Below are positions 33,685 to 61,416 of a stretch of DNA of 64,000 nt, one piece after another. Numbering within the stretch: position 1 is the stretch's first letter; the number at the start of each line of letters is the position of its first letter. Source of the DNA: Candidatus Omnitrophota bacterium (GTDB lineage: Bacteria; Omnitrophota; Omnitrophia; Omnitrophales; JACROU01); contig JAJDCD010000023.1 in NCBI GenBank assembly GCA_029261035.1, positions 237,126 to 301,125 on the forward strand, given 5' to 3'. Made by a program: the position numbers and the translations under genes. The notes beneath the pieces are model-generated. The model was not told the origin of the DNA. It was given only the letters and a program-made list of their open reading frames with translations, and ran no database searches.

Positions 33685-34128
33685 ATGAAGATATCCAAAC
33701 GAGGTGAATACGCTTTAAGGTGTTTATTAGCATTAACTTACAACTATGGAAAAGGTGTGCTTAAACTCAGTGAAATCGCCAATGAGCATGAGATTCCTTA
33801 TAAATTCTTAGAACAAATCATGATTCTTTTAAAACAGGCAGAGTTAGTAAAAAGCCAAAAAGGAAAAAAGGGAGGGTATGAACTGGCCAGAAACCCTAAC
33901 GAAATTCTTTTAGGAGAAATAGTTCGTTTGACGGATGGACCTTTGGCCCCTATTCATGACGAGAGAAGTTTGAAGCATTTGGTTGATGAGGGAGGTCCTC
34001 AGGCAGGGCTCTTTGACTTATTCCTCGAAGTTCGAAACTCCGTCTCATCTATATTAGATCATCGAACCCTCCAAGACTTAGCTCAAAGGAATATGGAGCT
34101 TCAACAAAAAGAGATGTACTTCATTTGA
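33685..34128 (+). CDS. Rrf2-family transcriptional regulator
   Basis: 147 aa. The N-terminal wHTH MKISKRGEYALRCLLALT...LSEIANEHEIPYKFLEQIMILLKQAELVKSQKGKKGGYELAR is the Rrf2 signature. No Fe-S-ligating Cys cluster was seen. Confidence 0.8.
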   Translation: MKISKRGEYALRCLLALTYNYGKGVLKLSEIANEHEIPYKFLEQIMILLKQAELVKSQKGKKGGYELARNPNEILLGEIVRLTDGPLAPIHDERSLKHLVDEGGPQAGLFDLFLEVRNSVSSILDHRTLQDLAQRNMELQQKEMYFI

Positions 34129-34339: not shown

Positions 34340-37300
34340 GTGTTTTCTAATTTTATGATCAAGTTCAAAAAACCGATCGCTTTTTTTACTTTTTTACTTT
34401 TTACGATGAATACGTTTGCTTATGCTGCGCCGGAAATCTCTTTGTCTTCTTTAAAGGCTAAAGACAATATTCTTCTCCCATTAAATATTCAAATACCAGA
34501 AACCTTAGGCGTCGTTGAAGAAGAAATTTTAGGTTCTGGCCCTATAGTTATTCATATAGAAGATGCTCATGCAGATTACCAAGCCCAGAAAAACATACAA
34601 GCAATTATTGAACACTTAGAAAAGACCCAAGATTTTAACCAGCTTTTTCTTGAGGGTGGAGCAGGAGAATTGACCCCCGAAAGCTTTCATTTCTTTGAAG
34701 AACATTCGTTAAATCAAAAGGTTGTCGATGACTTAATGCAACAAGGCTTGTTTTCGGGAGCCGAAGCGTTCTTGGTCGATAATACTGAGACAGCCCAAGG
34801 TTTCGGCATTGAGGACATTGATACGTATCGAAAGAACTTACAACAATTTCGAGAAGTGATTCAAACAAAAGAAACGCATGTTTGGACTGAAGAACAAAAA
34901 CAAATCCTTTCCACTCAAATTTCAAAAACATTCCCCAAAGAATTAAGAGAGATTGTTTCTCTTAGACAGAAGCTCGACCTAAATCAAATATCACTGTTAA
35001 GTTATGTAAACCTTTTGAATCATTTAGTAAAAAAACATCTTTCCATCGATTTACAAGACAAGAAACATCAATGGGATTACCCCTCTTTAGTTCGACTTGT
35101 TCGACTTAAGGAGATGAAAACAACAAACCTCGAACAAATCCAATCAGAAAAGAAAGCGTGGCTCGAAAAACTTGAAGAGCTTAACTTAGATAACGAATTG
35201 ATGGAAAAGCTAGAGAATATAGAAAAACAAAAATTCCCAAGATTTGTCTTAGAACAACTGCACCAAGCAAAGGGAGGGAAGCTTTCTTTAGAGGATTTCC
35301 CAGCATGGAAAAATTATCTTCAACAATTAATGTATCAAACAGAAGTTGATAGCAAAGGGTTGTTTCAGGAAATAGAGAGCCTTTCAGGGAAACTCTATAA
35401 GGGGTTAGTCCAAACACCAGCGCAACAAAGTCTTCTTAAAAAGATAAAGAGTTTTCATCTTTTCGAAAAGCTTCTCTTGCTCGAGCTTACCCGAGAGGAG
35501 TATGGGAAACTTAAGATAGAAAATCTAGATGTTATGTTACCTGAAGAAATTGAAACTGTGTTGGAAGGGGCAAAATCTTTTTATAGGGAGGCTATAAAAA
35601 GAGAATTCTTTTTCACTCAAAATTTATTATCTCAAATGAAAGAAAATAAAAACCCAAAATCTATTTTAGTTACAGGAGGGTTTCATTCTGAAGGAATAAA
35701 AAAGAAAATAAGGGAATTAAATTTCTCTTATGTCCGAATTCGCCCTCACGTAGGATCTTCCATTGAATCACGAAAAATTTATTTAAATACGTTGCTTGAA
35801 GAAAATAAAACAAAAATAGCTTCCATTGCTAACGTACTTCAGATTATGCCTGAAGCCACACAGCAAAAAATGGGCGTTTCTGTTAAGAGAAGATTTTTTG
35901 TTAATGCAGCAGTGAGCCGAGCAGCATCTTTGGGTGAGGAGGAGCTTCCCAAAATTCCTGGAGCCAAGATTTTGACTTTATCTTTAGGGGAGCTTGCGGA
36001 TTACCTTGCTGAGAATCTTGAATCTCAATTTGAAGAGGCTGGGCGCAATTTTAGAACAAAAAAACCCAATGCGGTTTTAGATAGTTTTGAAATTATGGCG
36101 AATGCCCGATTTATTGATGCGGACACGGTTCGATTTATTTCACAACCTAGATTAGCCACAGGAGAAGATGGGGCTATTGTTAATACATCCCATGGGTTGT
36201 TGTCCAACATCATAGGCTTGGAGCCTAATGACTTTCAATCTCATTGGATGCGATTGATATTTTATTTATATCCTAACGATAAAATAGTTATTAATTTTAT
36301 TCACAATGGGTTTGTGCGAGAGCTCATCAGAAAAAGAAATGCGCACAAGTCACAAAAAGAATTTGATTATGATTTATCCATACGGGATGAGTACATTAAA
36401 TTAGCTCGAGTCTTTGTCGAGGCGTTTCGAAAAACACCTTATGGTTCTTCTGAAGAAAAGATTGAAAGCGTAAGAATTATAGAAGCGATAGGGGTTCCTT
36501 GGTTTTCATCTGAAGAGCAAAGCACCATTAAAATAGGAAATCAGGTTTCCTTGTATCTGTTATCGCAGTTACAGCTTTTAAGTGAGAAAATTGAAGGGGC
36601 ATCTCTGGGAGAAACAAATCAAATAGAAAAGAGCACCTTCTTTCAAAAATTTTGGGAGGCTCCTCTGTGGTTTAAGGTTCCTGTCAGTGTGGGTGTCATT
36701 AGTACTGCAGCAGCCCTTCTTTTTGGTTTAGGCTTGCCGGAGGCTTTTAAAAATCCAATAGCTTCTTTTTTTAATAACATCACTATCTTTGGATTTTTTG
36801 TTGCACTTGCAGATATTTTAGGTCAATGGATTTCGGGGGCAAAATATAATTTAAAACAAACTTTTCTTTCTTTTTTTCCTTTGGGGTTAGCGTTAGGAAC
36901 AATGACTTTTGTAGGTTACGGAATTATTAATTACTTAGTTCCTCAAGACTCTCAACTGACGGTCTGGATTTGGGGCGTTTTGCTTAGTGTTAGCGCTTTA
37001 ATGGGCTTCAAGTTAGCCAATTTTTATAACAGTTTTAAGGAAGATGTGAGCCAACTTCAACATTGGGCTTTTCGTATTGCGGGTATCGCGTTCCCACTTA
37101 TTCTAATTTGGCACTATCTGCCACGCGAAGAACCTCTTCCTGAGTTTGTTGTGGGCATTGTGCGTGTGTTGGGAACTTGGGTTGTGATACGGAGTAGAAC
37201 GATTCCTTATGCCTGGCTTGTCAAAAGAGTCAGAAATCAAATTAAAAAAGAAGAAGCAACGACATCTGCAGATAAAGAGGACGCAAAAGAAGCCTTAGAT

Positions 37301-40300
37301 GCTCAAGAAAAACAATACGAATCTTTTTGGATGTCGCGAGTTCCTTCCTTCATTAAAAATTATGTTGTGATGATGTTTTTCCCTCCACATTTAGCAGTTA
37401 TTTTAGAAGGCATTGCTACGCAATATTTCCAATTGTTTTACTCTTGGTCTGTAAATAAAAAAGGATTCATGATTAAAAAGGAAAATCTAAGAGGAAACCG
37501 AATGTTTCTTTTCTTTTTAGGGTTTATTTGGTGGTTAGGTGTTCAGCGTTTTACAAAAACAGAAACTAAGAAAGAGCCAAAAGAAGAAATAGAAGCAAAA
37601 AGTTTAGGAGCGATTTCGGATAAAGATAACAAAATTACGCGCCTTAATTTCTATAAGAAAGTTCGCCCTTATTTAGCTTATCTTGCCAGAAAAAATGTTT
37701 CGGCACCTTTTGCTGCAAAGACACCGGATTTGTTCTTACTTTTAGGCCATGGAGACCCTAGAACTTTCTATGAATTTTCTGGAGTTTGGAGAGATGCCAG
37801 TTTGAAAGGGCATCAAGTTCCCATTGTGATTGCTGGCGGTAGGGGTAGGGGAACGGATCTGTTGGTTCAAAAAATTATGCTCTATGCCCAAGATAACAAA
37901 ATTCCTTTTACCGAAGAAGAGCGAGCGTTGATTCTTAAAAGCGATATTTCTGAAGCTGAGATCATTAAAATGGTTCTTGTGAAACAAGAGATTCCTGAAG
38001 AGTTAATCACTGTTGAAACAAAATCCACAAATACACCCGAAAACTTTGTTAACAGCCTTGCTTTTGTTAAGCAGCTTGTGGGCCAAGATGCGTTAATTCA
38101 AGTCGTAACAAATCCACCTCTTAATTTAAGAGCCCATCAAACAGGATTAAAAAAATGGGAAGATATCATTAAAAGTCAGTCGTGGCAGTTGCGCACAACG
38201 CCTGTTTACATGCCTCGTTTACAAAAAATGACAGAAGAGGACACTTTAGAGTTTATCGCTTATGTTTTAGGCTTACCTTCGGGTTATCAACCTAAGAATA
38301 CGTCTGTGAATCGTAAAAGTGAAACAGAGCGAATTGCAGAGTATGGAACAAAAGAAACCCCAGATCTAATTCCTCTAGATTTTTCCGAAACAGAATGGAG
38401 CTTAGATGCTGTAAGGGAATTAAGAGAAACACATTTCAGAGACTTTCTTCAGCAAAAAGGCGACGTTCCGAAAGACAAGTGGAGCAAAGGCATTTGGGCT
38501 CTTTTATTCTTTATTCCATCTTTCTTTATTGCTTTAGGGGTTGTCCCCGACTTTTTCTATAATGCGCGAGCGTTGTCCCCAACTTTTTACCTTCATGAAT
38601 TTTTGCATGGCAGTAATAGTTGGAATTTAGAAAACTTAAATATTCCTCTTTGGGCCAAAACAATGACTCATTGGGGCCCTATTTATTATGTGTTGTATGC
38701 GCTTGAATATGTTGCTCATGGTATTTCCGATGGACTTGTCTCTGTTTTTTCTTGGGCACTTTCTTTTTTTGGCATGGAAGAAGAAGGGGGTAAGCTTTCG
38801 TATATTATTCCAGATGCTGTTGATTTAATGATAGGTTTTACGGGCTTAAAAGTTGGACAAACACTATACTCTTTAAAGAATCAAACCCGCCTTTCGAGAT
38901 TTGGAATGTGGTCCAGCTTTACGGTTGCTTTTGGTTACTTTGCTTTTCACACACTCTATATTTTGCATGATGCCTTTCGCATCGGAGATTTTTCTAAAGT
39001 ACACCATCCTGAGAATGGAGACTACCGTATGTTTGCCAGCATTTTTTCTTCAGGTGCAGCGAGTCCAGGTCAAATATTTTTAACAGGCCTTTTCGTAGCA
39101 AGTTTTTCTTATCTTTTTGTTACTGCAGGCCATTGGCTTTTAAGTGGGATTAAAAACAGGTTACAACTAGGTTCTATTCGAGAGAGTTTTAGAAAAAGAG
39201 TAAGTGAAAAAATAATTTCTACTTACAAATCTACGGTTTTGGCTCTTTCCATTTTTATTGTTAGTTTTACAGCACTTTTAACAAGCGCAAGTTACTCCAC
39301 TCCCAAAATAACACCTGCTTCACCAGAGGTAAAAGAAACAGACCCAGAAAAATCCACCAAGAAAAGAGAACGCAAAGAGGACTATGTTGCCAACCCGGCA
39401 AAAGGAGATAGTTTAGGAAAGAGTATAGAAATAGCTCGAAGCGCCTCTAGACCGAACAGTGTAGAAGCGGCTTCTTTGGGATCTCAACAGGAAAAAATTG
39501 ATGAGAGAAGATTAAGAAGAGCTCAGCGAAGCCATAGACGATATAAAGATCCATTAGTATCTTTGATTCATATGGTGGTTACAGCGGATCAGAATCGTTT
39601 ACTTATGGTTAAGTCGGTGGAAGGGGCTCGTTGGTCGTTGTTGGAAGGGGCTCCTGTTCTTGGTGAAACTGTTTTTGAGGCTTCTAAGAGAATTCTACCT
39701 CTCTGGATTAATATGGCAGCCCAAACAACGAAGGCAATTGGGATTGTTTCTGACCCAGAACTTCATGATGTTTATGTTTATTCTCCTGTTATGAAAGTTG
39801 TTTTAAGGGATCAACAGCTTTTAAAAGATTCGAATCAGTTTTTTGATGCTCGTTTATTTTCCCGAGAAGAATTAAAGTCTATTTATCTTAAAATGTTTGT
39901 AAACCCAAATCATCGAAGCCTTGTTGAGGCTTTTGTTAATGATCCTCAGCTATCACATATCCCTGTTAAAGCAGAAAGTTTAAAATTTGCTGATCCGGAC
40001 AAACGTTTAATTGAAACGCCTTCTTTTGACCAAGCTAAAGCTAGAAGAACCAAAGAAGAACATAATTACCATATAGAGCAGGGGAAAACACAACACAATT
40101 TAACATCGGTTGGATTGGTGGAGGTAACGAAGCCAAACGGAGAATATTTAGGAGTTATGCTTCAACAAATTAAAAAAGGAGCATATAAAGGGCAGTGGTC
40201 TTTAAGTGGAGGGCATCCCTCTCATGGTGAAAGTGCTGTTTATGCGGGCATGCGAGAGATATATGAGGAAACTAGTTTGGTTGCAACCAAGCCGCACTTT

Positions 40301-42235
40301 TTAGGCATTTTGCCTCCAAGTTATCCTGGTAGTCCTGAAAGTTACATTCAATCTTTATATAGTTTTCAAGCAAAAGGTTATCCTAACCCTGATAATAAAG
40401 AAGTTTCCGCCATTGCTTTTGTTAAGAATTTTGAAGAGCTCAATGAGTTTGCGCGAAATAATATACTTGCGTGGAGTGTGTATGGGACCGTAGCTAAATT
40501 TCTATTAGAAAAAGAAGGTGTAAAACTACCGGAAGAAATAACAACATTAGTGAAATCCCTTTTTTCAAAATATGCGTTTGATTCAAAGCGACTTCACTCG
40601 GTAACTCTTGCATTAACTTACTTAATTCCAGAAATTATTAAAACACAGCTGCAGAATGTTAACTTAGAGAACTCGAATTTTATTTTAAGTTCTATGTTCC
40701 ATTATTACTTATCCAAGATGTTGCTAGACACACTACAAAGTAACCCCCGGTTTGAAGCAGGCGCGTTGCTGCGATTTATGCAATTGGGCGATCAAGATAT
40801 ATATGACCCTAAAGCTTCTGGCGGAGGAGCGTACTTTACACAGGAGATTCCCGAAGAATTTAAAGCGGCGTATGAGAAGCAAGAACAAGAAAATGGACGA
40901 TTATTAGCAGATAAATGGTTGTTAGAAGAAAAAGGGATTTTTTGTTTTAGAAAGAAACAAGGTGAGGAGATGCGTTATGAAACTTGGTATTGGAGAGTGA
41001 ATCCTTGGAACGATGGAGCAACTTTAAAATTAGAGGATGAGGAGTATCAAGGGTTAGAGGCTCTATCCTTAACGTTGCAACAAGCAACTCATTTTGTTCT
41101 TAATGATCGCAATGCCAATGGCTTTTTACTCATAGACCCAAAAAGTCCTTTAGCTCAAATCGCAGAGGCTTCAAGAGAGGAGAGCAACTCTGCTGCTATT
41201 GAAGGGAGACCCGTACTTCCATCGGAATATTTGGTTCCAGAACTTCAACTATTATTAGGCGAACAGGTTCAAGATATGAATGAAACCTTAGATGCAATGG
41301 CAGAAGAAATGCTCCAATTTCTAGGAAAATCAATTTTACCTTCTACGCATGAAAACTTAAAACAACGCTTGCGACTCGAACTCTTTAAAATTTTATATGT
41401 AACACAAATGGCGGAGATCTCTCACCTCGAAACTGTTGGAGCAGCTTCTCTAGGTAGTATAAAAGAAAGAGAAGTAGACGCTATTATTTATGTGACAGAA
41501 ACTGTTGCCGGAGGGATTTATTATTTACCAGAGGCAGATCAAACACTTCTTGTGTTGTTTAAAGAAAATGCTAAGGATGGAAAGACAGAAATAAAAACTT
41601 CATCTGCTGTAAATGCTTTTAATAGGGATATAACGCCGGTTTTGAATCTAGTACCACAAAATGTAAGGGGCCCTCAATCCAGACTGCCGCTCATTGTTTT
41701 TGATGATGTTCTTAAGAAGAGAAAAGAAACGGCACGTCAAATGGCGCATCAACTTTCTTCCGCGCTAAAGCCAGGCGACTTATTTGTAGCTGTTTGGGAG
41801 GGAGACGATAAACCTTCAGTGCTGAGCCAGCTTTATCGAGAAGCAAATACATCCGAGTTTCAGGTGCGGGATATTCCAAAAGCGCTTATTTCTGAAGCGC
41901 GTGTTCAGTCTTTGACGCGAAAAATAGAAACAGCTCCTGTGGCAATTAGTTCGTTATACGATACTTCAGATTTAGAACTGGAATTGCGAGGAGGCGATAA
42001 AATTAAATTAGATTTAAGCTCATTAATTGAAAAGGGGGTTAACCCGATTCAAGTCGTGAAATTAATTCGAGCGCTTTCAGATAATTTAGAAGCCCGAAAG
42101 GTGCTTTTTGAACGTATTGGATTTAAGTGGAACGAAAAAGAAGGTTTTTGGACCGTTGGAAAAGACTTTACTCAATTCCTCGAAACAATCTACACACAAT
42201 CTCTCACACAACAGCTAGTCCTTCAAGCAGCTTAG
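34340..42235 (+). CDS. Giant secreted/membrane protein of 2631 aa. It has an N-terminal domain shared with the second giant protein, two polytopic TM blocks, an embedded Nudix hydrolase motif and recurring A[AS]SLG motifs.
   Basis: Uninterrupted 7.9-kb ORF in AT-rich DNA. Signal peptide MIKFKKPIAFFTFLLFTMNTFAYA. N-terminal domain residues ~60-480 are homologous to the 43433 protein. Hydrophobic helices occur at residues ~770-900 and ~1380-1640. Nudix box GGHPSHGESAVYAGMREIYEETSL at nt ~40207-40275. An RBS-like AAAGGTG lies upstream. Confidence 0.9.
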   Translation: MFSNFMIKFKKPIAFFTFLLFTMNTFAYAAPEISLSSLKAKDNILLPLNIQIPETLGVVEEEILGSGPIVIHIEDAHADYQAQKNIQAIIEHLEKTQDFNQLFLEGGAGELTPESFHFFEEHSLNQKVVDDLMQQGLFSGAEAFLVDNTETAQGFGIEDIDTYRKNLQQFREVIQTKETHVWTEEQKQILSTQISKTFPKELREIVSLRQKLDLNQISLLSYVNLLNHLVKKHLSIDLQDKKHQWDYPSLVRLVRLKEMKTTNLEQIQSEKKAWLEKLEELNLDNELMEKLENIEKQKFPRFVLEQLHQAKGGKLSLEDFPAWKNYLQQLMYQTEVDSKGLFQEIESLSGKLYKGLVQTPAQQSLLKKIKSFHLFEKLLLLELTREEYGKLKIENLDVMLPEEIETVLEGAKSFYREAIKREFFFTQNLLSQMKENKNPKSILVTGGFHSEGIKKKIRELNFSYVRIRPHVGSSIESRKIYLNTLLEENKTKIASIANVLQIMPEATQQKMGVSVKRRFFVNAAVSRAASLGEEELPKIPGAKILTLSLGELADYLAENLESQFEEAGRNFRTKKPNAVLDSFEIMANARFIDADTVRFISQPRLATGEDGAIVNTSHGLLSNIIGLEPNDFQSHWMRLIFYLYPNDKIVINFIHNGFVRELIRKRNAHKSQKEFDYDLSIRDEYIKLARVFVEAFRKTPYGSSEEKIESVRIIEAIGVPWFSSEEQSTIKIGNQVSLYLLSQLQLLSEKIEGASLGETNQIEKSTFFQKFWEAPLWFKVPVSVGVISTAAALLFGLGLPEAFKNPIASFFNNITIFGFFVALADILGQWISGAKYNLKQTFLSFFPLGLALGTMTFVGYGIINYLVPQDSQLTVWIWGVLLSVSALMGFKLANFYNSFKEDVSQLQHWAFRIAGIAFPLILIWHYLPREEPLPEFVVGIVRVLGTWVVIRSRTIPYAWLVKRVRNQIKKEEATTSADKEDAKEALDAQEKQYESFWMSRVPSFIKNYVVMMFFPPHLAVILEGIATQYFQLFYSWSVNKKGFMIKKENLRGNRMFLFFLGFIWWLGVQRFTKTETKKEPKEEIEAKSLGAISDKDNKITRLNFYKKVRPYLAYLARKNVSAPFAAKTPDLFLLLGHGDPRTFYEFSGVWRDASLKGHQVPIVIAGGRGRGTDLLVQKIMLYAQDNKIPFTEEERALILKSDISEAEIIKMVLVKQEIPEELITVETKSTNTPENFVNSLAFVKQLVGQDALIQVVTNPPLNLRAHQTGLKKWEDIIKSQSWQLRTTPVYMPRLQKMTEEDTLEFIAYVLGLPSGYQPKNTSVNRKSETERIAEYGTKETPDLIPLDFSETEWSLDAVRELRETHFRDFLQQKGDVPKDKWSKGIWALLFFIPSFFIALGVVPDFFYNARALSPTFYLHEFLHGSNSWNLENLNIPLWAKTMTHWGPIYYVLYALEYVAHGISDGLVSVFSWALSFFGMEEEGGKLSYIIPDAVDLMIGFTGLKVGQTLYSLKNQTRLSRFGMWSSFTVAFGYFAFHTLYILHDAFRIGDFSKVHHPENGDYRMFASIFSSGAASPGQIFLTGLFVASFSYLFVTAGHWLLSGIKNRLQLGSIRESFRKRVSEKIISTYKSTVLALSIFIVSFTALLTSASYSTPKITPASPEVKETDPEKSTKKRERKEDYVANPAKGDSLGKSIEIARSASRPNSVEAASLGSQQEKIDERRLRRAQRSHRRYKDPLVSLIHMVVTADQNRLLMVKSVEGARWSLLEGAPVLGETVFEASKRILPLWINMAAQTTKAIGIVSDPELHDVYVYSPVMKVVLRDQQLLKDSNQFFDARLFSREELKSIYLKMFVNPNHRSLVEAFVNDPQLSHIPVKAESLKFADPDKRLIETPSFDQAKARRTKEEHNYHIEQGKTQHNLTSVGLVEVTKPNGEYLGVMLQQIKKGAYKGQWSLSGGHPSHGESAVYAGMREIYEETSLVATKPHFLGILPPSYPGSPESYIQSLYSFQAKGYPNPDNKEVSAIAFVKNFEELNEFARNNILAWSVYGTVAKFLLEKEGVKLPEEITTLVKSLFSKYAFDSKRLHSVTLALTYLIPEIIKTQLQNVNLENSNFILSSMFHYYLSKMLLDTLQSNPRFEAGALLRFMQLGDQDIYDPKASGGGAYFTQEIPEEFKAAYEKQEQENGRLLADKWLLEEKGIFCFRKKQGEEMRYETWYWRVNPWNDGATLKLEDEEYQGLEALSLTLQQATHFVLNDRNANGFLLIDPKSPLAQIAEASREESNSAAIEGRPVLPSEYLVPELQLLLGEQVQDMNETLDAMAEEMLQFLGKSILPSTHENLKQRLRLELFKILYVTQMAEISHLETVGAASLGSIKEREVDAIIYVTETVAGGIYYLPEADQTLLVLFKENAKDGKTEIKTSSAVNAFNRDITPVLNLVPQNVRGPQSRLPLIVFDDVLKKRKETARQMAHQLSSALKPGDLFVAVWEGDDKPSVLSQLYREANTSEFQVRDIPKALISEARVQSLTRKIETAPVAISSLYDTSDLELELRGGDKIKLDLSSLIEKGVNPIQVVKLIRALSDNLEARKVLFERIGFKWNEKEGFWTVGKDFTQFLETIYTQSLTQQLVLQAA

Positions 42236-42241
42236 AGCATT

Positions 42242-42408
42242 GTCATCCCGTACTTGATACGGGATCCAGTGTCTTTATCTTTTCTTTAATCGTCATTGCG
42301 AGGCGTCGAACAAAGAGCCGCGGCAATCTCAGGATTTTGAATAAGAATGGAAGATGCCCATTTTCTTGAGATTGCCGCAGCTTTTTTGTCAAAGCTTCGC
42401 AATGACAG
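42242..42408. repeat. Intergenic modular repeat cluster: module A (GTCAT, hairpin, ATCCAGTGTCTTT) followed by two inverted copies of module C (GTCATTGCGAG...GCGGCAATCTCAG)
   Basis: 42242-42276 gtcatcccgtacttgatacgggatccagtgtcttt. 42292-42338 gtcattgcgaggcgtcgaacaaagagccgcggcaatctcaggatttt. 42368-42408 is the reverse-orientation copy. Related copies are at 59104-59283, 61234-61272 and 62592-62684. Confidence 0.6.
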
Positions 42409-55400: not shown

Positions 55401-57073
55401 CACATAGCTTTTTAAAGCTTATAAGAAAAAATCTTGCGATTAAAAAGAAGAGAATGGATTTACTTCAATATAAAGCAGCTGTTTATGGTTCTGAAGATGA
55501 AGCTCTGTTGAGAAAGCTTTGGGAAGAGTCTGGTTTTAAAATTGTGTCTTTAGAACCTTTGAAAGAGAACGAGCAAGATATTGATTACCCTCTTCCTGAG
55601 AGTGCATTAAAAACATATGGATGGAAAGTAAGGGTTGTCAAAGAGAGAACCTTGTCTCAGCGTAGTGAGGCAATAGAAGCCATCAAATTGCCATCAGATC
55701 AGTTGCGTAACAAGGATAAATCTTTGGTTTTGTCGCCTGAAACAAGGGCTATGCTAGAAATTCCTTATAAAGAAAAACGAGTTTCTAAAAAAGAGATCCA
55801 AAAAATGCTAGCTCAACGGGAATTTTTTAAAGATGCACGTGTGTTTGAATATATAGAACGGTATTTTGACAATCCGTCACGTGAAAGGAAGCACGACTTA
55901 GAAATTGTTCTTAGCCGAATTAATAATTTAGTTGGCTTAGCGTTTAGAACAAAAGGAATGGATGGTGAAGAAGACTTGTTGAGAGTAGAGGACTTAATGG
56001 CTGTTCAGAGAGTCTTAAACCAAGTTTTTTTTGGTAAAGGAATCAAACAAAAAAAGAACAGAAAAAAATGGCAAGCCCTCAAAGGGCAACTTCAAATGAA
56101 GTATGGGATCTATCAACTTATTCTTAACCATCAGACCTTAAGTACTCCTATTCACGAAAGGCTTCAAGGTTTATTGAAAAAATTTGATGTTATTTCAGAG
56201 ATTGAGGTAGATGAAGATAGAGAGGTCTTACGAATAAAAGCGAAAATCGAGAGAGAGTTTGTTTCTTCAAACGCTGAAAGTTTGGGAAGACAAGCCGTTG
56301 TGGGCTTTTATGATCTTAATCAACAGTTGGGTGGGGGAACCCGTCTCGGGTTTGACCGGGTTACCTATGAACTGACAAAAGGCCTTTTATCTCCGGTTCT
56401 TCGTTTAGATAGAGAGACTTATGATGAGGCGTATTCTTCTCTTTTTCCTGAAGAAATTTTAGAGAGTTTTAGTTTGCCTAAAGACAAACTAGATCAAATG
56501 GGTCTTTGGGGAAGAGTTTTAGCGGCAGGACAAGAAGGGCCCTCAAGGCATGTGTTTGACTATAGGAGTTTGCCAAAAAATATTGAAAGTCTAGATGCAT
56601 TGATTCTTTATTTGTTGCAACACAAAAAATTAACCTACACCTTACTAACGATAGCGCCTATCGAAGAAGTTAGAGAGTTTAAATTATTATTAAAAAAATA
56701 TATTTCGGATAAATATCAAACCAGTTTAGGTGAACGTTTTAATTTACAAGGGGTCCATTCAGAAAAGGAATTGAAAGCTTCTGTTCATAAACTTGTTTCT
56801 GATAATCAAAAGAGTGCTTTAGCTTTTGTATCTGAGGATGCAGAACAATCTTGGGTTGGTTTTACACGTAATAATTTGTTACAAGTAGCTGGATCTAAAG
56901 ATGCCTCCACTCAAAATGCTTCTGTTATTGTTGCAGCTCAAAAATTATTAGAACCTTTACCAACGCATCTTTTTTGGGAAGTTCAAAAACCAGAAGATTT
57001 AACAACGACTTTTATTTGGAATGAATTACTGATTCGATTTCAAGCAGATACAATGCTTCGAATTGCGGCTTAA
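43433..57073 (+). CDS. Giant secreted protein of 4546 aa. It has an N-terminal domain paralogous to the 34340 protein, two class I SAM-methyltransferase-like domains, two internal tandem repeat arrays and recurring A[AS]SLG motifs.
   Basis: Uninterrupted 13.6-kb ORF. The likely true start is the in-frame TTG at 43484, giving MKFLYKTRRFLSSLVLFTFLFSLIQV...ANA/AT as signal peptide. MTase motif I-like LDLGTGNFHA (nt ~47452) and VDTGTGAYTA (nt ~54661), each followed by a GTD strand. A basic KRKRKRRR patch at nt ~54415-54440. Confidence 0.9.
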   Translation: MLFFLKSFILFQERPTRLKFLYKTRRFLSSLVLFTFLFSLIQVSDLKNANAATIVPQSPLFVFDFDLPRNLGELTHISPKVLLDPTSDEPLFFHIQSSHRHYETETNIKEILRFLTKEYDIKHIFLEGGAYRLHPENFQFFPEDPEMNKKVVQTLLQKGELTGAEAFLIESEQNVSGWGLEDAKLYKENRDLFKKIIKLQPQAQTYLDFLILELNSINSVVLNNTLKKWLQQKKRHKEQTTPLSERLRYLKKQAKKQLDLDLSTPISQNLFPTLVRYFQLEKSLKEFNLEHWKKEKDLFLHELKKMELEPNLAKEIHSFLDKTPGFLKENYGYDSKTSQIFSLPKLRFVFERLYDALPEDFDIKRFPSVAQYIQIEILKDEVKGKQMFQEIKILEEKVLSSLIQTPEEKEHINLLEEITRLKKLIRLELTREEYNRYFDNSSQQNKPEHILDSTHQTISQTIKNKKTSLDILKQKLLETGIFDLTLSFYRAAIDREEAMTNKLLKHAKEVLKEKTIFITGGFHSEIFESTLKKNNLNYVQISPHMGDGSDFSEETYLKASLGKSFIETAHKEAPLRTDPLLLSELNDPMFLADIKAVVDETVLEVSGKSLGGLYDKDKTKTVGEVSFTGDVEKDFHQITEWFQTIFSNQEDVDLFLKQNYIVYGKRGEGWILRIEKNSDHTLSFDFEGVLMGGLNTPTLAKYQFVFDYQESSVQLFVYANWLLDLPYISDDQLILKKKIYFNSEELSSLKFENNKFYIEVPEKVRQQLWNLEILERFEKEGVASEHLQLVSEAQGIVLPKSGDVMPSMASSLGKAKSVDPEELAQRILTSKRFIIRKGAIDRLTGIASQMVFNLPEGKEAETQRRAFDILARLSVPQEEGEEVLPTEVYELLHLALAHIALQRTLPYSTEALEQLKNNLLSSNISEERFFKSVTNAFWNIIYLDARKEHGYRKDFILEVLSFIESTILSKSPQLRSLVYPLLFEFLKRLAYEVGNQTKSSEHFGVVTAPILNKIFDIYKHVFSTPNFEKKVYKDAVIHSFLHIYWGVKGDYSPLPLMQRRIDDFQPVVNFIQDAWNESREEERRNGIKDLYDNFVQYQDEGSASSLGNAHRPPFSFKNGIFRLNWNYPGKADVYPWAPKERGSFAEALNYWYGRAIFFTVDEREPLHYEEAITERLSSAVGDFEKIYRGLAAYPQLRLSNVLIQRNLDKPTAEVVEMIKPLIFDAAKAFGEAPESRAFRVDRKADHDSLMVLYHNAEQFVDTVTPFYRAHQSKASSLGLRPVEEKKVSTFDRFPTDKDYWDLFWKEAKLSSSSVNGDYPPSISGFLERFFSKLPNNFKSGLDLGTGNFHALRKAREHFDSRAMTPILIGTDFAQPGMSPPEGVVFRKVAGEHLSDLLIDDELDLQHIEAIFGVHSLLYMNVEGTLRQMNAVMPMGGQIGFVLHHAESTYVFSEKYYLEMLLLLERLDLFATLRQFIKDPRPKTLRVVYKKTKVLIDIILQKQEEDRAFSDSPTGKMIGELIGLSSYVTQQVLSDWLKNSSYAHKVPEFSTPFDMIYMMEFLSLDEMEGFREEGLDDYIYEVMSQYKKLKVELNQTHTEYLERIEGRFYGRKKKAALLKEAAIYGMQHKDELMDLFKRNGFEVEVEELHDTQSNGRSLLGWGVTGTKISEAMEKKPVLKRVNSEMPKLDFDEIKMKIPDFNDDFFESVQNQLEQLELLERIGFLKAAYAILQDPSNLWAQNTLNHAVYILDLYAHFISGMKKFIGDYAFFNPSTILSLYYQTLKGLETRLLPGELLDHILWIQSQIRMNQIEKVLLRRILELRPEEKVRRPGKIVQRALSELGYELTLFGQTSFSKDNTYWEIEIEKTTAASLGRLRSMTTHRVFSKEEKELKTNEIVPAASLGQVRNQKSVLIDRIRAGYEKLKEEEKVEIGDISLLVDKKEGRFYKTFPHPGGKNKGSREPVRLGANIEELELRLLREEEAIVLEFIYTKKGKKGVAKLYWTGKKYETEYERKVREMREAFKNLEEEKVVAVGDVSLLVNKSQGKLQHGFPTPNGNTLNKLQPIGTGMKGARQETVASSLGVQLNKEMLIMKIREGFRDLEVGNTKMVSIGDVSLLVDKKRGRFYQTFPTPDGGTVERGQGIGAGKGIKDIYLKMIKEEQEIVLEFWFKKGNSETEDRVKFYWNGKEYKQEKDRKKKELIKRIKKGFKKAKKGQSTEIGDVSLLVNKKYGRLQSVFPMPNGEKVAGIGLSFGAKLNLKKISLKIQNEEGQIVLKFLYRVKGKKEQETAKLYWNGKKYETEEKKKSSNKEQKELIKKIRKGFKDLESGKSEAIEVGDVSLLIKKKRGLFKGSFPTPNGGKVGASQALGTSGNLSEIFLTIRKEGNQIVLEFRYTKMISNTGDRKEKIVGKERLYWNGTKYLNKFNTGERKKREERLIKQIRNGFKSLKLGRKQEVEIEDISLLIYKKYGTLKPIFPTPDGGQVRKGYPFGGTKHIKEIALRIKKEEGQIVLEFFYKIEGEEKKSVRKVYWHEGKYESEVGRKKREIHEGFKNLQSGEKEKIEIEDISLLVNMRHGVFKPDFPTPDGGRIGKSRGMGVGKNLKAISLRASKVKGKIVLEYFYKTKGSKKEKFAKVYWFEGKYEVEIDRKRREIREGFQKLQLGEQEEIEIGDVSLLVNKRYGNFQMTFPTPDGSQVGRVGAIGIGKNLKEVTLTIRKENGEIILVFFSKTKGSKKEKQTKLYWYEEKYESETDRKRREIREGFQKLQLGEQEEIEIGDVNLLVNKKAGNFKFRFPTPDGGQVGKQYAIGMGGDSIEIDLKIKREKETGKILLEFRYQKQGRATFEKVPVTLAWNPTTKTYEPYVPETQQDVYEFDLDTEGFSLGRQMLEVGSQKMPKAKGYELTAIEASSLGEQQALEEAWKAFQLQRPQLIAKIEAWKAGKRGEETARQLRDQIYKIERADLIAWDLDKYMHKKSSQKVFSGYKELLIALFSDLQLNPLGFQLDFVKKPLESIRFRFAQKVPSVMERYARVETLSEEEKDLLREEVYEIDSSRLKEWQLERVLHRKEVPLFDGDYRQVLILSLPDLKLNPLGFGLDFTTLEKALESMRFIFEKEILEILKRYEQLKGLSELKVEQLREEIYAIRGRHLTAWGLEGLGDRSAAPYFKGSTFNALNTFFSELNLNSLDYELDWSSPEQATASVHHVFNKEFPELMERYRRFEELSFSQQNRLRDEFYQFTQNQMQALNLRAATQEYFQNTHAIAMQAIFPKLELNVLGFSLDWSSPEQARASLRFVFQRHIPSIMERYEKIDQLDAEMIERLRRDIYHNISNAHFRLWKIQNLIRTKVLGENYLEVLDVFFNDPRLGFSILGMRQYRKQNTTTKYQWKDLQQAKTSIKEAMRENMPELVDQYEAWESLSLFEQNNLRDDFYAITAGHIAVWGLNSALNNRAVPFFKGKIFNVLNETFPNLKLNPLGFALDYTTTDRALESIRYVLSKKKPKVIEEYDRRHELSQDEIEALKEKIYQINSRSLLLWGLRGAFSKKESPQFEGSYVRALQTFFSGLELNPLRFRTDFTTEENAINSVLSKFERYKPQLFSKYQSIEDLTEEEVETLREQIYRIQPEQLKLWGLRGAFSYFKGGYRAILMAVFNHSRLNLEKESFKRKRKRRRISESGRIPTVGLNVQTDEESSASSLGEDMSDTEVWKYGFKTVKGSAEYNPELKKAIREFFRALKGSNPDKLKIISVDTGTGAYTAINEARNYLEEQGWLHRFELVGTDIFEPEEKAPKGVRFEKVATESLSDSFALESLDGVMSVRSLLYTDVKDSLFVLNQVLKVGGEGLFILHHKYSEILAFDRDFQEQVDILKGLKLFAHLETFVKQPNYRNLRQLLIVRKIISNAIHERKTRKDFPHILNREIGLLQKFQAAIDYSVYLVLRDGLKKKITTKEIDEVLSFLEVPTNMEEEFLPYFNDLMTLYIRQYSGFDVQTYEHSAHSFLKLIRKNLAIKKKRMDLLQYKAAVYGSEDEALLRKLWEESGFKIVSLEPLKENEQDIDYPLPESALKTYGWKVRVVKERTLSQRSEAIEAIKLPSDQLRNKDKSLVLSPETRAMLEIPYKEKRVSKKEIQKMLAQREFFKDARVFEYIERYFDNPSRERKHDLEIVLSRINNLVGLAFRTKGMDGEEDLLRVEDLMAVQRVLNQVFFGKGIKQKKNRKKWQALKGQLQMKYGIYQLILNHQTLSTPIHERLQGLLKKFDVISEIEVDEDREVLRIKAKIEREFVSSNAESLGRQAVVGFYDLNQQLGGGTRLGFDRVTYELTKGLLSPVLRLDRETYDEAYSSLFPEEILESFSLPKDKLDQMGLWGRVLAAGQEGPSRHVFDYRSLPKNIESLDALILYLLQHKKLTYTLLTIAPIEEVREFKLLLKKYISDKYQTSLGERFNLQGVHSEKELKASVHKLVSDNQKSALAFVSEDAEQSWVGFTRNNLLQVAGSKDASTQNASVIVAAQKLLEPLPTHLFWEVQKPEDLTTTFIWNELLIRFQADTMLRIAA
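49160..52020 (+). repeat. Internal tandem array 1 in the giant gene: about 9 units of ~105 aa (~315 nt)
   Basis: Recurring unit ...REGF+.L+.GE.EEIEIGDVSLLVNKK.G.F...FPTPDGG.VG......G......L.I+KE.G.IVLEF.Y+.KG.....+.YW.G.KYE.E.DRK+REI. The GD[IV]SLL core recurs 9 times. Units are divergent at nucleotide level but conserved in protein sequence. Confidence 0.8.
52270..54410 (+). repeat. Internal tandem array 2 in the giant gene: about 7 units of ~90 aa (~275 nt)
   Basis: Recurring unit F..L.LNPLGF.LD+.....A..S.RF.F.K..P...E+Y....LS..E...LR.E.Y.I....L..WGL. Cores are LNPLGFQLDF, LNPLGFGLDF, LNSLDYELDW, LNVLGFSLDW, LNPLGFALDY and LNPLRFRTDF. Confidence 0.75.
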
Positions 57074-57081
57074 TGAAAATT

Positions 57082-59064
57082 TTAAACTTTTAGTTGTTTT
57101 TCGGCGTCGACAACGTCGCGATTCATTCGGCTCATTGCTTTTATGGCTTTGTCTTTGAGATGGTCGGAGACATTTGGGGCATGGATTAATTGGCGTAATA
57201 ATTGAACGATCATCCGAAAACATCTTACTAACTCCCCTTCAGCTACAGTGGCATTCTTCATTACTTTTTCAAACGAATGGTTTTGATACCAAGCTTCGAC
57301 ATATTCTGTCAGATGAAAAAAGGCAGGTTTGGTAAAGGGATGAATTTCAAATTTTCTTTCTTTTTTGTAAACGTGTTTATTGCAACTTGTAGCCAGATTT
57401 TCTACATTTCTGAATCGTTTATGGAGATCAGGCATTTCGTCGTTCTTTCTAGGTTCATAAACGAGAGCTGCTAATATAACACAAAGTTCTAAAGGGTTGA
57501 TCGCATCTAAGTGGCCGTCCCCTTGCATTTCTCCAAGCAGAAGTTCGTAGCCATAGAGTCGTGAAGCAAATTTACCTTTTTCTGAAATTTTATTTTTTTC
57601 AATATAACCCATATCTTTAAGCAAACTGATTTTGGATTGCATTAACTCTAGAGCCAACCGTTTATTTCTTTTACTGCTTTGATAAGCATGAAATGATTTT
57701 GGGTAAATCTCTAGCAGTCTTTCTCCGAAAATTTCGTAAAGATTGAGGACGGTAGCGTAGCCCGTATTAAACTGACTGCGCACAGATTCATTTTCTCGAA
57801 AGATAATGCGTTTCACTTCTTCATGATCTATTTCATGAGGATTAACGCGAGTATAAACAAAACCTTCTTTATCCATTCCTCTTCGACCTGCACGACCTGC
57901 CATTTGGTAGAAATCGCGGGTTTTTAAAGGTCCAAAATGAGTGCCATGATACTTTCTTAAACAGTCGAAGACAACGGTTCGAGCGGGCATATTGATGCCT
58001 ATTGCAAATGTTTCGGTGGTAAAGATCAGTTTAATCAGTTTGCTGGTAAATAAAACTTCAATCACTTCCTTTAATGTAGGAAGCATCCCTGCATGGTGAA
58101 AAGCCACACCTCTTTCGATCATGGTAACCATCCAAAGAGCAGAGCGTTCCTCAGAGAGATTGTATTTTTGTAATAAACTATTAAAGAGATCTAAAACCTT
58201 ACTTCTTTCATCATCGCTTAGGAAATTATAATTAGATAGTTCTAAGGCCAAAGATTCGCAGCGTTTTCTGCCGAAAGTGAAGTAAATACAAGGCAGTTTT
58301 TCTTCTGCCTTTAGGGTTTCGACCAAGGTTTCTATTCGGTTCGCTTTTGCTTTAGGCCGATCGATTCGATTGCGCTTGTATCGATCTCTCATGGATAAGC
58401 GCCAATCTTCTCTGTTTTCATAGCCTTGTTTTTTTAATCTTGGCATGTCTTCGAAAAATTTATTTTGGCATTGAAAAATATGGTGAAGCTTAACAGGCCT
58501 ATGTTCTTCGATAATAACTTCTACAGGACGCTCATGAACTTCGCGAATCCAAGAGGCCAGTTCGTCCACATTGGGAATGGTTGCTGACAGGCATAAAAAA
58601 TTGATGTGTTTAGGGGTGAACATAATTGCTTCTTCCCACACAGTGCCTCTTTCGGGGTCGTCTAAATAATGGATTTCATCAAAAATAACCCAAGAAATAT
58701 TTTCAAAGCGTTTTGGGTTTTCGAAAAGAGTATTACGAAAAATTTCTGTAGTCATTATGAGAAGAGAGCCTTTAGGGTTGATTGAGACATCTCCCGTTAA
58801 AATCCCTACTTCATTTTCGTATTTGTGTGTAAAATCTCTAAACTTTTGATTGCTAAGAGCTTTGATAGGAGAGGTGTAGATTACCCCTTCGTTTCGGCTC
58901 ATAGCCATTTCGATGGCGTATTCTGCAATTGCGGTTTTCCCAGCACCGGTAGGAGCTGATACAAAAACAGATTCTTCTTTTTTGATGATTTTGATGGCTT
59001 CTTCTTGAAACGCATCATATTTAAAAGACACGAGAACTCCTTTGCATGCTAGCGTAGAGCGCAT
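57082..59064 (-). CDS. Ski2-like / DEAD-DEAH superfamily 2 RNA helicase
   Basis: 660 aa. Motif I APTGAGKT, motif II DEIHYL, motif III SAT, HHAGMLP, motif VI QMAGRAGRRG. The C-terminal helical domain is reminiscent of the Ski2/HelY C-terminal region. Confidence 0.8.
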   Translation of the reverse strand: MRSTLACKGVLVSFKYDAFQEEAIKIIKKEESVFVSAPTGAGKTAIAEYAIEMAMSRNEGVIYTSPIKALSNQKFRDFTHKYENEVGILTGDVSINPKGSLLIMTTEIFRNTLFENPKRFENISWVIFDEIHYLDDPERGTVWEEAIMFTPKHINFLCLSATIPNVDELASWIREVHERPVEVIIEEHRPVKLHHIFQCQNKFFEDMPRLKKQGYENREDWRLSMRDRYKRNRIDRPKAKANRIETLVETLKAEEKLPCIYFTFGRKRCESLALELSNYNFLSDDERSKVLDLFNSLLQKYNLSEERSALWMVTMIERGVAFHHAGMLPTLKEVIEVLFTSKLIKLIFTTETFAIGINMPARTVVFDCLRKYHGTHFGPLKTRDFYQMAGRAGRRGMDKEGFVYTRVNPHEIDHEEVKRIIFRENESVRSQFNTGYATVLNLYEIFGERLLEIYPKSFHAYQSSKRNKRLALELMQSKISLLKDMGYIEKNKISEKGKFASRLYGYELLLGEMQGDGHLDAINPLELCVILAALVYEPRKNDEMPDLHKRFRNVENLATSCNKHVYKKERKFEIHPFTKPAFFHLTEYVEAWYQNHSFEKVMKNATVAEGELVRCFRMIVQLLRQLIHAPNVSDHLKDKAIKAMSRMNRDVVDAEKQLKV

Positions 59065-61214: not shown

Positions 61215-61233
61215 TTGTTGATCATGATCGTCT

Positions 61234-61272
61234 GAGATTGCCGCGACTCACTGGTTTTAGTCTCGCAATGAC
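61234..61272 (-). repeat. Module C repeat in inverted orientation, immediately after the stop of the 59517 gene
   Basis: gagattgccgcgactcactggttttagtctcgcaatgac is the reverse complement of GTCATTGCGAGACTAAAACCAGTGAGTCGCGGCAATCTC. Confidence 0.55.
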
Positions 61273-61416
61273 GTTTGTCCTAATCCCTTAGGCAGAGGAA
61301 GCTCTTTGCTAAAGGCCTCTTTTTGCCCCCAATCCTCCTATGTGTTAGGCTTCTTTAAAGAGGTCTGTACTGTTCTTTGAAACGAGTTTAAACGCATAAA
61401 AAGGGAGGTTCGTCCT

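Follow-up and report, generated by a model that had tools for sequence, protein, structure and literature searches.

A 64,000-nucleotide stretch of DNA from a Candidatus Omnitrophota bacterium (GenBank assembly GCA_029261035.1, contig JAJDCD010000023.1, positions 237,126 to 301,125 of the forward strand), here called the window and numbered from its first letter, holds two giant open reading frames (ORFs), p1 and p2, which are punctuated by a short peptide of the form [AG]-x-S-L-G. Both have the same overall plan, consisting of a conserved N-terminal head, a row of unrelated cargo modules and a conserved C-terminal tail (Table 1). In this study, the evidence from the two giants and from a clade of their relatives supports the pentapeptides as selected peptide signals at module boundaries. 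We further weigh whether they are cut, and by which factor they might be read.

Two giant reading frames with a recurrent pentapeptide

For p1 a start at ATG 34355 (MIKFKK...) is more plausible than one at GTG 34340; the corresponding entry of a public protein library, P0005, is p1 minus its first 5 residues and begins there. The public protein P0004 is identical to p2. Similarity between p1 and p2 is confined to the first ~490 residues, at 32% identity. In the cargo of p1 the only Pfam matches are NUDIX and DUF218, and p2 has no significant Pfam match. p2 holds two paralogous methyltransferase-like modules of ~590 amino acids (aa) and two arrays of ~106-110-aa repeats, neither of which matches a Pfam family: array 1 (49142-52081) consists of nine tandem ~106-aa repeats of the type GDVSLLV...FPTPDGG...IVLEF, and array 2 (52166-54514) of ~110-aa repeats of the type LNPLGF.LD.... 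As in a polyprotein, several autonomous modules (NUDIX, DUF218, methyltransferase-like paralogues, repeat arrays) are joined in a single ORF, and modules are shuffled between relatives.

The canonical pentapeptide [AG]-x-S-L-G occurs 17 times in the 7,177 aa of the two giants, 6 times in p1 and 11 times in p2. From composition 0.36 copies are expected (Poisson p = 6e-23), and the highest count reached in 5,000 shuffles was 4. Just one copy is contained in the remaining 25 ORFs of the window (11,652 aa; Fisher p = 9e-7), and thus within the window the motif is not common elsewhere, a point on which a first-pass annotation of this DNA had made its interpretation depend. That annotation had placed 15 occurrences, about 5 in p1 and about 10 in p2. 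All 15 are present, with positions right to within 1-5 nucleotides, and the four codon strings quoted are exact (45857 gcatcgagcttagga, 46739 gcctctagtttaggc, 49037 gcagcgagtttgggg, 54500 gcttcaagtctaggc); five SLG tripeptides had been overlooked, two of them canonical (GDSLG 39404 and GFSLG 52067). Its view that different codons are used also stands: the Ser, Leu and Gly codons of the motif differ freely from copy to copy, so that it is the peptide which is under selection. The distance of 200-500 aa between motifs was too narrow, the real range being 21-801 aa, including spacers of 21-30 aa between paired sites. A charged stretch often following the motif is consistent with the slight enrichment of Glu, Asp and Gln found right behind the motif Gly. 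Missing from its scope were the family-wide occurrence, the second motif class, the TIKI-superfamily head and the conserved tail, all described below.

In total there are 20 SLG tripeptides, 7 of them in p1 and 13 in p2, and 17 have Ala or Gly two residues ahead of the Ser. The remaining three (p1 TLSLG 35975, p2 KASLG 45104 and p2 QTSLG 56717) are at chance level, roughly 3 being expected (1.22 + 1.99); p2 KASLG aligns with the conserved YLxxxLG which closes the head domain in a relative. These chance copies and the real internal repeats of p2 (FPTPDG, GDVSLL) are what could be said for the motif being an artefact of chance or composition, or a by-product of internal repetition. The explanation is refuted by the enrichment, with 17 copies seen, 0.36 expected and a shuffle maximum of 4, and by the flanks of the motif copies, which are unrelated (5-10% identity, equal to background). 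Moreover, the same motif is present in the unrelated cargo of the relatives L001, P0039, P0045, P0120 and P0140.

Table 1. Coordinates of the giant ORFs p1 and p2, their modules and their pentapeptide sites in the window
Feature	Position	Strand	Remarks
Giant ORF p1	34340..42235	+	2,631 aa from GTG 34340; 2,626 aa from ATG 34355; head, 5 cargo/spacer segments, tail
p1 head domain	34355..35923	+	aa 6-528; TIKI/ChaN/EreA-superfamily hydrolase-like; D75-x-H77, E105, R421, GGFHS446-450
p1 site 1 AASLG	35921..35935	+	aa 528-532; at head end
p1 site 2 GASLG	36596..36610	+	aa 753-757; directly ahead of membrane-helix-rich module
p1 site 3 AKSLG	37595..37609	+	aa 1086-1090; junction of membrane module and DUF218 module
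p1 site 4 GDSLG	39404..39418	+	aa 1689-1693; first of pair 21 aa apart
p1 site 5 AASLG	39467..39481	+	aa 1710-1714; ahead of NUDIX-containing module
p1 site 6 AASLG	41441..41455	+	aa 2368-2372; directly ahead of tail
p1 tail module	41456..42232	+	aa 2373-2631; ends ...LQAA; homologous to C-terminal modules of P0039, P0045, P0140
Giant ORF p2	43433..57073	+	4,546 aa; head, 10 cargo/spacer segments, tail
p2 head domain	43493..45211	+	aa 21-593; 32% identical to p1 head; H, E, R, H kept; Ser at D75 position
p2 site 1 GKSLG	45251..45265	+	aa 607-611; right behind head
p2 site 2 ASSLG	45857..45871	+	aa 809-813
p2 site 3 ASSLG	46739..46753	+	aa 1103-1107
p2 site 4 ASSLG	47252..47266	+	aa 1274-1278; upstream boundary of methyltransferase-like module 1
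p2 methyltransferase-like module 1	47267..49051	+	aa 1279-1873; paralogue of module 2; sites at both sides
p2 site 5 AASLG	49037..49051	+	aa 1869-1873; downstream boundary of methyltransferase-like module 1; first of pair 30 aa apart
p2 site 6 AASLG	49127..49141	+	aa 1899-1903; pLDDT ~30 spacer passes into confident repeat domain
p2 site 7 ASSLG	49664..49678	+	aa 2078-2082; truncates second ~106-aa repeat, new repeat starts right behind
p2 site 8 GFSLG	52067..52081	+	aa 2879-2883; end of repeat array 1; first of pair 28 aa apart
p2 site 9 ASSLG	52151..52165	+	aa 2907-2911; start of repeat array 2
p2 site 10 ASSLG	54500..54514	+	aa 3690-3694; upstream boundary of methyltransferase-like module 2
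p2 methyltransferase-like module 2	54515..56287	+	aa 3695-4285; sites at both sides
p2 site 11 AESLG	56273..56287	+	aa 4281-4285; downstream boundary of methyltransferase-like module 2, directly ahead of tail
p2 tail module	56288..57070	+	aa 4286-4546; ends ...RIAA; match to tail-family hidden Markov model, domain E 1e-41

The head-bearing family and its motif classes

A pattern scan with one genome per species yielded 92 relatives, of which 80 loci (L-numbers) were kept. Nearly all of them come from metagenome-assembled genomes (MAGs) of Candidatus Omnitrophota or Elusimicrobiota, or from MAGs labelled "Planctomycetia". In essentially all of the 80 loci, a giant ORF of 1,400 to >3,900 aa starts with the head and usually runs off the available sequence. 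Word-indexed homologue search recovers only 2-3 head relatives, so that an exhaustive hidden Markov model (HMM) search was required. With the head, the latter found 9,265 representative proteins, mostly of Omnitrophota and Elusimicrobiota, with p1 (from Met6) and p2 among them; in 150 of the 150 matches listed the head is N-terminal, with protein lengths of up to 7,980 aa. P-numbered relatives are among the best 150 full-length head matches. Outside the head, BLAST searches of the 80 loci with the cargo of p1 and p2 gave almost no match. In the cluster of P0120 (members P0156 and P0157), the 6,752-aa protein corresponds to two adjacent products of 3,675 and 3,057 aa on one 36-kb contig, which may be due to an assembly frameshift or to a naturally split giant gene.

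Near-invariant punctuation was found in one head clade only, that of p1 and p2. When enriched k-mers were sought de novo in the relatives, L001, the nearest locus, gave 6 copies of [AGS][ASQ]SLG in unrelated cargo, and L002 nine copies of RSE[MI]R (p = 5e-14); L004 and L072, which belong to one MAG, have R[SA]ExR eight times. Counted by the five-residue patterns [AG].SLG and R[SA]E.R, the SLG class comprises p1 (6 sites), p2 (11), L001 (6), P0039 (12), P0045 (17), P0120 (12) and P0140 (10), and also P0076 and P0093. To the R[SA]ExR class belong P0113 with 15 sites, 14 of which are exactly RSELR (p = 8e-38), P0114 with 19 sites (12 RSESR), P0142 with 19 sites (18 RAExR), P0121 with 16 and P0094 with 12, and also P0058, P0104, P0138, P0143 and P0148. 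Sequence logos limit the information to the five core residues, plus a small residue ahead of the Arg in RSExR. The variable motif positions are uniform within a protein and different between proteins (permutation p <= 2e-4). No cargo homology was found between the SLG and RSExR classes.

As read from the sequences, motif class follows the genome and not the phylogeny of the heads. The p2 head is closer to the heads of the RSE class (32-36%) than to those of the SLG class (28-31%), the p1 head shows the reverse, and both proteins use SLG. Likewise, the divergent paralogues L004 and L072 of one MAG both use R[SA]ExR. These two pairs suggest that the motif class is a property of each genome.

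Weaker signals were seen outside the punctuated clade. Seven loci of a different head clade (L069, L067, L073, L035, L050, L064, L022) carry a [GA]ARLA motif, with GARLA four times in L069 (p = 3e-10), and L042 has P-LTMP four times between unrelated flanks (p = 5e-9). Each of them could be another punctuation code. In the non-punctuated clades, a search for degenerate motifs with a reduced alphabet revealed no further class. Three other candidates, DA.GR in L033, KVEG in L080 and FPTPDG in p2, were discarded as internal domain repeats.

Behind the last site lies the tail, a conserved C-terminal family of ~230-295 aa (about 250 aa). The tail HMM matches members of the punctuated clade only, and always at the very C-terminus; carriers are p1, p2, P0039, P0045, P0094, P0104, P0113, P0114, P0120, P0121, P0139, P0140, P0142 and P0143. 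No relatives of the tail were found in Pfam or the PDB. All complete members end in [SA]-A, namely AA in all proteins of the SLG class and mostly SA in the RSE class, and Ala-Ala is the commonest pair ahead of SLG. The terminal Ala-Ala is reminiscent of ssrA-type C-terminal signals and of the residues preceding SLG. As a speculation, the Ala-Ala end of the SLG-class proteins would fit a cut ahead of the motif Ser.

Module boundaries and the proposed reader of the sites

The position of the sites relative to head, cargo and tail was determined across the clade. Of the 19 members examined, 18 have their first site 0-120 aa behind the head end (177 aa in L072), and in 11 of the 12 tabulated tail-bearing members the last site comes ~230-297 aa ahead of the C-terminus (P0142: 419 aa). 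Compared to random positions, the 12-residue flanks on both sides of the sites are more hydrophilic and have a higher tendency to disorder (TOP-IDP, p = 1e-13 and 2e-11). Pfam envelopes contain none of the ~39 sites of p1, P0039, P0094 and P0143, where ~4 would be expected by chance; together with the disorder-prone flanks this is in line with the earlier expectation that the motifs do not lie inside compact domains. Successive sites in P0094 separate DUF218, methyltransferase, and Pyr_redox plus cytidylyltransferase, and these domains start 14-53 aa behind a site. Similarly, the methyltransferase-like paralogues of p2 align from ~15 aa behind one site to the next site. Blocks of cargo homology are rearranged between relatives, and the ends of the high-scoring segment pairs lie at a median of 10 aa from a site as compared to 112 aa for random positions; 51% of these ends, but 6% of random positions, are <=10 aa from a site (p = 7e-29).

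In an AlphaFold (AF2) model of p2 residues 1108-2200, the 30-aa spacer that separates site 1871 from site 1901 (1874-1903) has a predicted local distance difference test (pLDDT) score of ~30, and sites 1901 and 2080 are found where confidence climbs into the next repeat domain. Around site 1276 the pLDDT is low throughout and the model is uninformative there. Among 181 inter-site distances 21 measure <=60 aa and represent paired sites enclosing short spacers. Hence a recurrent short consensus, as known from polyproteins, marks the module junctions.

The motif could be a passive structural junction with no specific reader, such as a favoured linker, a helix cap or a scar of module shuffling. 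The coincidence of the sites with breakpoints of module shuffling would fit such an origin, and so would two sites located at an N-terminal helix start in the AF2 model. Nevertheless, we consider it very unlikely, as AxSLG (small, hydrophobic) and RSExR (charged) are chemically unrelated and stand at the same architectural position in sister lineages, and protein-specific variants are near-invariant, e.g. 14 RSELR in P0113 and 12 RSESR in P0114. Furthermore, the motif is missing from the ordinary multidomain proteins encoded in the window, and a signal for DNA recombination is at odds with the codons, which differ between copies. Taken together, unrelated motif classes at the same position and protein-specific variants imply that there is a specific reader, which evolves along with the sites. 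With the motif class being a property of the genome, this reader would act in trans, or all paralogous readers of a genome would be kept in step.

On balance we lean to the reading that a cellular polyprotein is processed at these sites in a sequence-specific manner, and that they are recognised by a factor which co-evolves with them. According to this proposal, p1 and p2 would be head-cargo-tail polyproteins composed of a signal-peptide-like segment, a TIKI-like head, unrelated enzyme, membrane and repeat modules, and the tail. At each junction [AG]-[AS]-S-L-G, set in a flexible linker, would be recognised by the sequence-specific factor. This factor would most likely be an endopeptidase, and the giant precursor would be cut into separate proteins and short spacer peptides. 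In P0039, residues 1771-1800 read AASLG and then at once MDRRDFIKLAGAAAGLALAA, a complete signal peptide of the twin-arginine translocation (Tat) type with its own Met. Tat signals work at a free N-terminus, and hence a free N-terminus would be needed right behind this site. P0045 and P0140 have the same upstream flank as the P0039 site (KRDRSKPPxQAASLG) and different modules behind it.

Alternatively, the pentapeptides could be linear motifs in linkers which are bound or modified by a partner, such as a scaffold, a chaperone or membrane-insertion factor or a Ser-modifying enzyme, while the giant stays whole. The data on boundaries, disorder and co-evolution fit binding as well as cleavage, no cleavage has been observed, and a motif that follows the genome implies a shared trans-acting reader. 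We regard this alternative as rather unlikely. Site pairs 21-30 aa apart around disordered spacers are typical of spacer-releasing cleavage and harder to understand as docking, the Tat-type signal behind the P0039 site needs its free N-terminus, and each protein brings along a hydrolase-like head with an intact catalytic set. Modification of the Ser in particular is difficult to reconcile with RAExR in 18 of the 19 sites of P0142, so the Ser is not essential. [AG]xSLG has what we take to be some likeness to the Ser-Leu core of the phosphopantetheine attachment sites of carrier proteins, where the Ser lies in a GxDSL-like motif, which is a lead only: p1 and p2 have no match to the carrier-protein domain PP-binding of Pfam, the flanks are unconserved and disorder-prone, and the sister motif RAExR is devoid of Ser.

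If the sites are cut, the head is the only candidate found for the cutting enzyme, no other hydrolase-like element having been detected. It comprises ~540 aa behind a signal-peptide-like N-terminus and is assigned to the TIKI/ChaN/EreA hydrolase superfamily. Conserved are H77, E105-G106, R421 and GGFHS446-450 (p1 numbering); among 230 heads, E105, R421 and H449 are found in all 230, H77 in 228 (the rest being gaps) and D75 in 203. Of 43 heads, 12 match PF04187 (ChaN, Cofac_haem_bdg, Tiki superfamily), with a best E of 5.4e-7; the match of the p1 head alone is below significance. Thus the head has both a match to the superfamily model and the catalytic set of the TIKI/ChaN/EreA/TraB superfamily, 2His/2Glu with a conserved basic residue, except that its second acidic residue is a variable Asp. 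The His-to-Glu spacing of 28 residues (H77-E105) is the same as in Bcr135 (H85/E113) and RRSP (H3902/E3930), and R421 and H449 are 28 residues apart as compared to 29 between the conserved Arg and the second His of RRSP (PMC6254334). In RRSP, E3930 and H4030 are essential for Ras cleavage (PMC6254334). Due to the PF04187 matches, the invariant H/E/R/H and the spacing like that of Bcr135 and RRSP, the head very probably acts as an enzyme, and its superfamily has the site-specific endopeptidases RRSP and TIKI among its members (PMC6254334).

The fold of the head model is suggestive of the TIKI-superfamily fold class. Its two halves are split by a helical insertion of ~250 aa, and the stretch running up to p1 site 1 has a pLDDT <50. 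Foldseek search of the PDB with the head model gave no match, and calmodulin-like matches of the head profile to PDB sequences were rejected as spurious, since they are confined to the helical insert. No recognised peptidase domain of Pfam is present in p1 or p2. Residues of the RSE-class heads that were considered as candidates for specificity (e.g. Glu at p1 339, 268 and 354) are confounded by phylogeny and no claim is made for them.

That the TIKI-like head is the protease is a tentative assignment, more doubtful than the processing of the sites as such. The head of one or both proteins would then cut in cis or in trans. In its complete form the proposal states that the clade encodes operon-like enzyme, membrane and repeat modules as head-cargo-tail polyproteins, which would be cut at genome-specific pentapeptides by their own N-terminal TIKI-superfamily endopeptidase; we consider it possible, with the same reserve as for the head.

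Several observations weigh against processing or against the head as its agent. Cleavage is inferred, and no cleavage product has been observed; of the alternatives left by the first-pass annotation, protease or autoprocessing sites on the one hand and a linker recognised by a partner on the other, the part common to both, a selected peptide signal at module boundaries, is supported, and the cutting itself is a proposal. Site 2080 of p2 interrupts a repeat unit and does not lie between complete units. Met is not significantly enriched right behind the sites, as tested for internal starts or fused genes. The signal-peptide-like N-terminus of the head is hard to match with the many cargo enzymes of cytoplasmic type (NUDIX, S-adenosylmethionine methyltransferases). 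Among the genes of the 64-kb window none for a protease was detected. The head occurs in the whole family and near-invariant punctuation in one clade only, so that the general function of the head need not be the cutting of sites. A motif that tracks the genome is accounted for by a separate reader acting in trans no less well than by the head. Finally, the superfamily also includes non-proteases, i.e. erythromycin esterases and the haem-binding ChaN (PMC6254334; Pfam description).

The last three points also favour cutting by a dedicated protease whose gene lies elsewhere in the genome, with another job for the head (esterase, export, anchoring): the head is universal and punctuation clade-specific, motif class follows the genome and not the head phylogeny, and the superfamily contains esterases and haem binders (PMC6254334; Pfam description). 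In addition, the p2 head lacks the near-invariant D75. It reads HIQSSH (43700-43720, aa ~90-96) where 203 of 230 heads have HIQDxH, and several heads of the punctuated clade carry T, S, N or E at this position. We nonetheless judge a separate protease to be unlikely. The window, which was the part of the genome inspected, yielded no protease gene, and the superfamily of the head does include the site-specific endopeptidases RRSP and TIKI. The tail, which is the only other clade-specific domain, was rejected as an alternative protease, as it has neither known relatives nor catalytic-looking invariant residues.

Genomic surroundings, known systems and significance

Positions ~1-34000 of the window are the chromosomal origin region, with serS, gyrA, gyrB, dnaN, dnaA, an AddA-like helicase-nuclease, parB, gidA and yidC-yidD-rnpA-rpmH. 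A switch in gene orientation and the minimum of the cumulative GC skew near 28-29 kb suggest that oriC lies between gidA (26505-28319, minus strand) and a deoxyhypusine synthase gene (29082, plus strand). Directly upstream of p1, a 147-aa ORF (33685-34128, plus strand) looks by sequence reading like a winged-helix regulator of the Rrf2 type, which might control the giant genes. A 148-aa ORF located between p1 and p2 (42735-43181, minus strand) is a putative type IV pilin or pseudopilin-like protein by its prepilin-type N-terminus KKGFTLLEIIVVFSIIAI. Behind p2, a DSHCT-domain Ski2-like helicase (57082-59064, minus strand) is followed by a DUF6178 protein which adjoins a bacterial eRF1-like (baeRF family 10) protein (59517-62547, plus strand), a gene set unusual for bacteria. 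Rfam found no RNA family in the 28-60 kb section of the window.

Viral polyproteins have consensus cleavage sites, e.g. those of picornavirus 3C and potyvirus NIa. Like them, p1 and p2 combine unrelated proteins in one ORF with a short consensus per junction, a lineage-specific consensus that would co-vary with its reader, short spacer peptides between paired sites and a hydrolase-like domain within the same ORF. Unlike them, p1 and p2 are chromosomal bacterial genes close to the replication origin and have no viral context, the candidate protease is of the TIKI superfamily and not chymotrypsin- or papain-like, cleavage is here inferred, and membrane segments and repeat arrays are among the modules.

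Among bacterial proteins, MARTX toxins release their effector modules by means of an internal cysteine protease domain (PMC6254334). They share with p1 and p2 the giant modular architecture and the exchange of modules between relatives, and MARTX modules are freed by cuts in the linkers between them; the MARTX effector RRSP is itself a site-specific endopeptidase of the TIKI superfamily. However, Pfam and NCBIfam scans detected neither Peptidase_C80, the cysteine protease domain, nor RTX repeats in p1 or p2. Moreover, the TIKI-like domain is N-terminal in every member and not part of the cargo, the linker motif is near-invariant, and the cargo has the look of housekeeping-type enzymes and not of toxins. 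With the TIKI/TraB/PrgY/ChaN/EreA superfamily the head shares the PF04187 match and the constellation of His...Glu (28 residues) and Arg...His. It differs from it in the helical insertion of ~250 aa and in the acidic D75, which is Asp and not Glu and varies in the punctuated clade. To our knowledge, no member of the TIKI superfamily is known to head a polyprotein of several thousand residues.

Giant proteins of Omnitrophota ('Archaeovorins' and others) have been described, their cleavage has been raised as an open question, and C39 or S8 peptidase domains have been proposed as processors (10.1101/2023.11.21.568195; 10.64898/2026.06.07.730766). In the main study of these giants, missing information on cleavage points blocked further analysis (West-Roberts et al. 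2023, 10.1101/2023.11.21.568195). Neither of the two papers reports cleavage sites, a TIKI-like head, a tail or punctuating motifs (10.1101/2023.11.21.568195; 10.64898/2026.06.07.730766). The present giants resemble the published ones in the phylum, as judged from nearest relatives, and in their NUDIX, methyltransferase and sugar-nucleotide enzymes and many membrane helices, but with 2.6 (p1) and 4.5 (p2) thousand aa they are far below the >30 thousand aa of the giants in these papers. Processing by C39 at a double glycine does not apply, since p1 and p2 have no C39 domain and the sites are [AG]xSLG or RSExR and not GG; an S8 domain is likewise absent from p1 and p2. Full-text literature search for the pentapeptides gave nothing relevant, and no account of the phenomenon turned up in the literature that could be searched. 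By analogy, p1 and p2 may work like a viral polyprotein or a MARTX toxin while being members of neither group.

For one large clade, the pentapeptides provide explicit candidates for cut points, of which there are 17 in the window and up to 19 per protein among the relatives. With the head, one candidate enzyme can be named, and the giant ORFs can be split into modules for structure prediction. Should cleavage be refuted, a striking co-evolving linear motif that marks module junctions would still be left. Should cleavage be true, this would mean a widespread cellular use of the polyprotein strategy, which is known mainly from viruses, and a new class of substrates for the TIKI superfamily. If, moreover, the proteins are cut by their own heads, they would be a chromosomal counterpart of viral polyprotein expression with a fast-evolving site code, and the mature proteome of these bacteria would become predictable from sequence.

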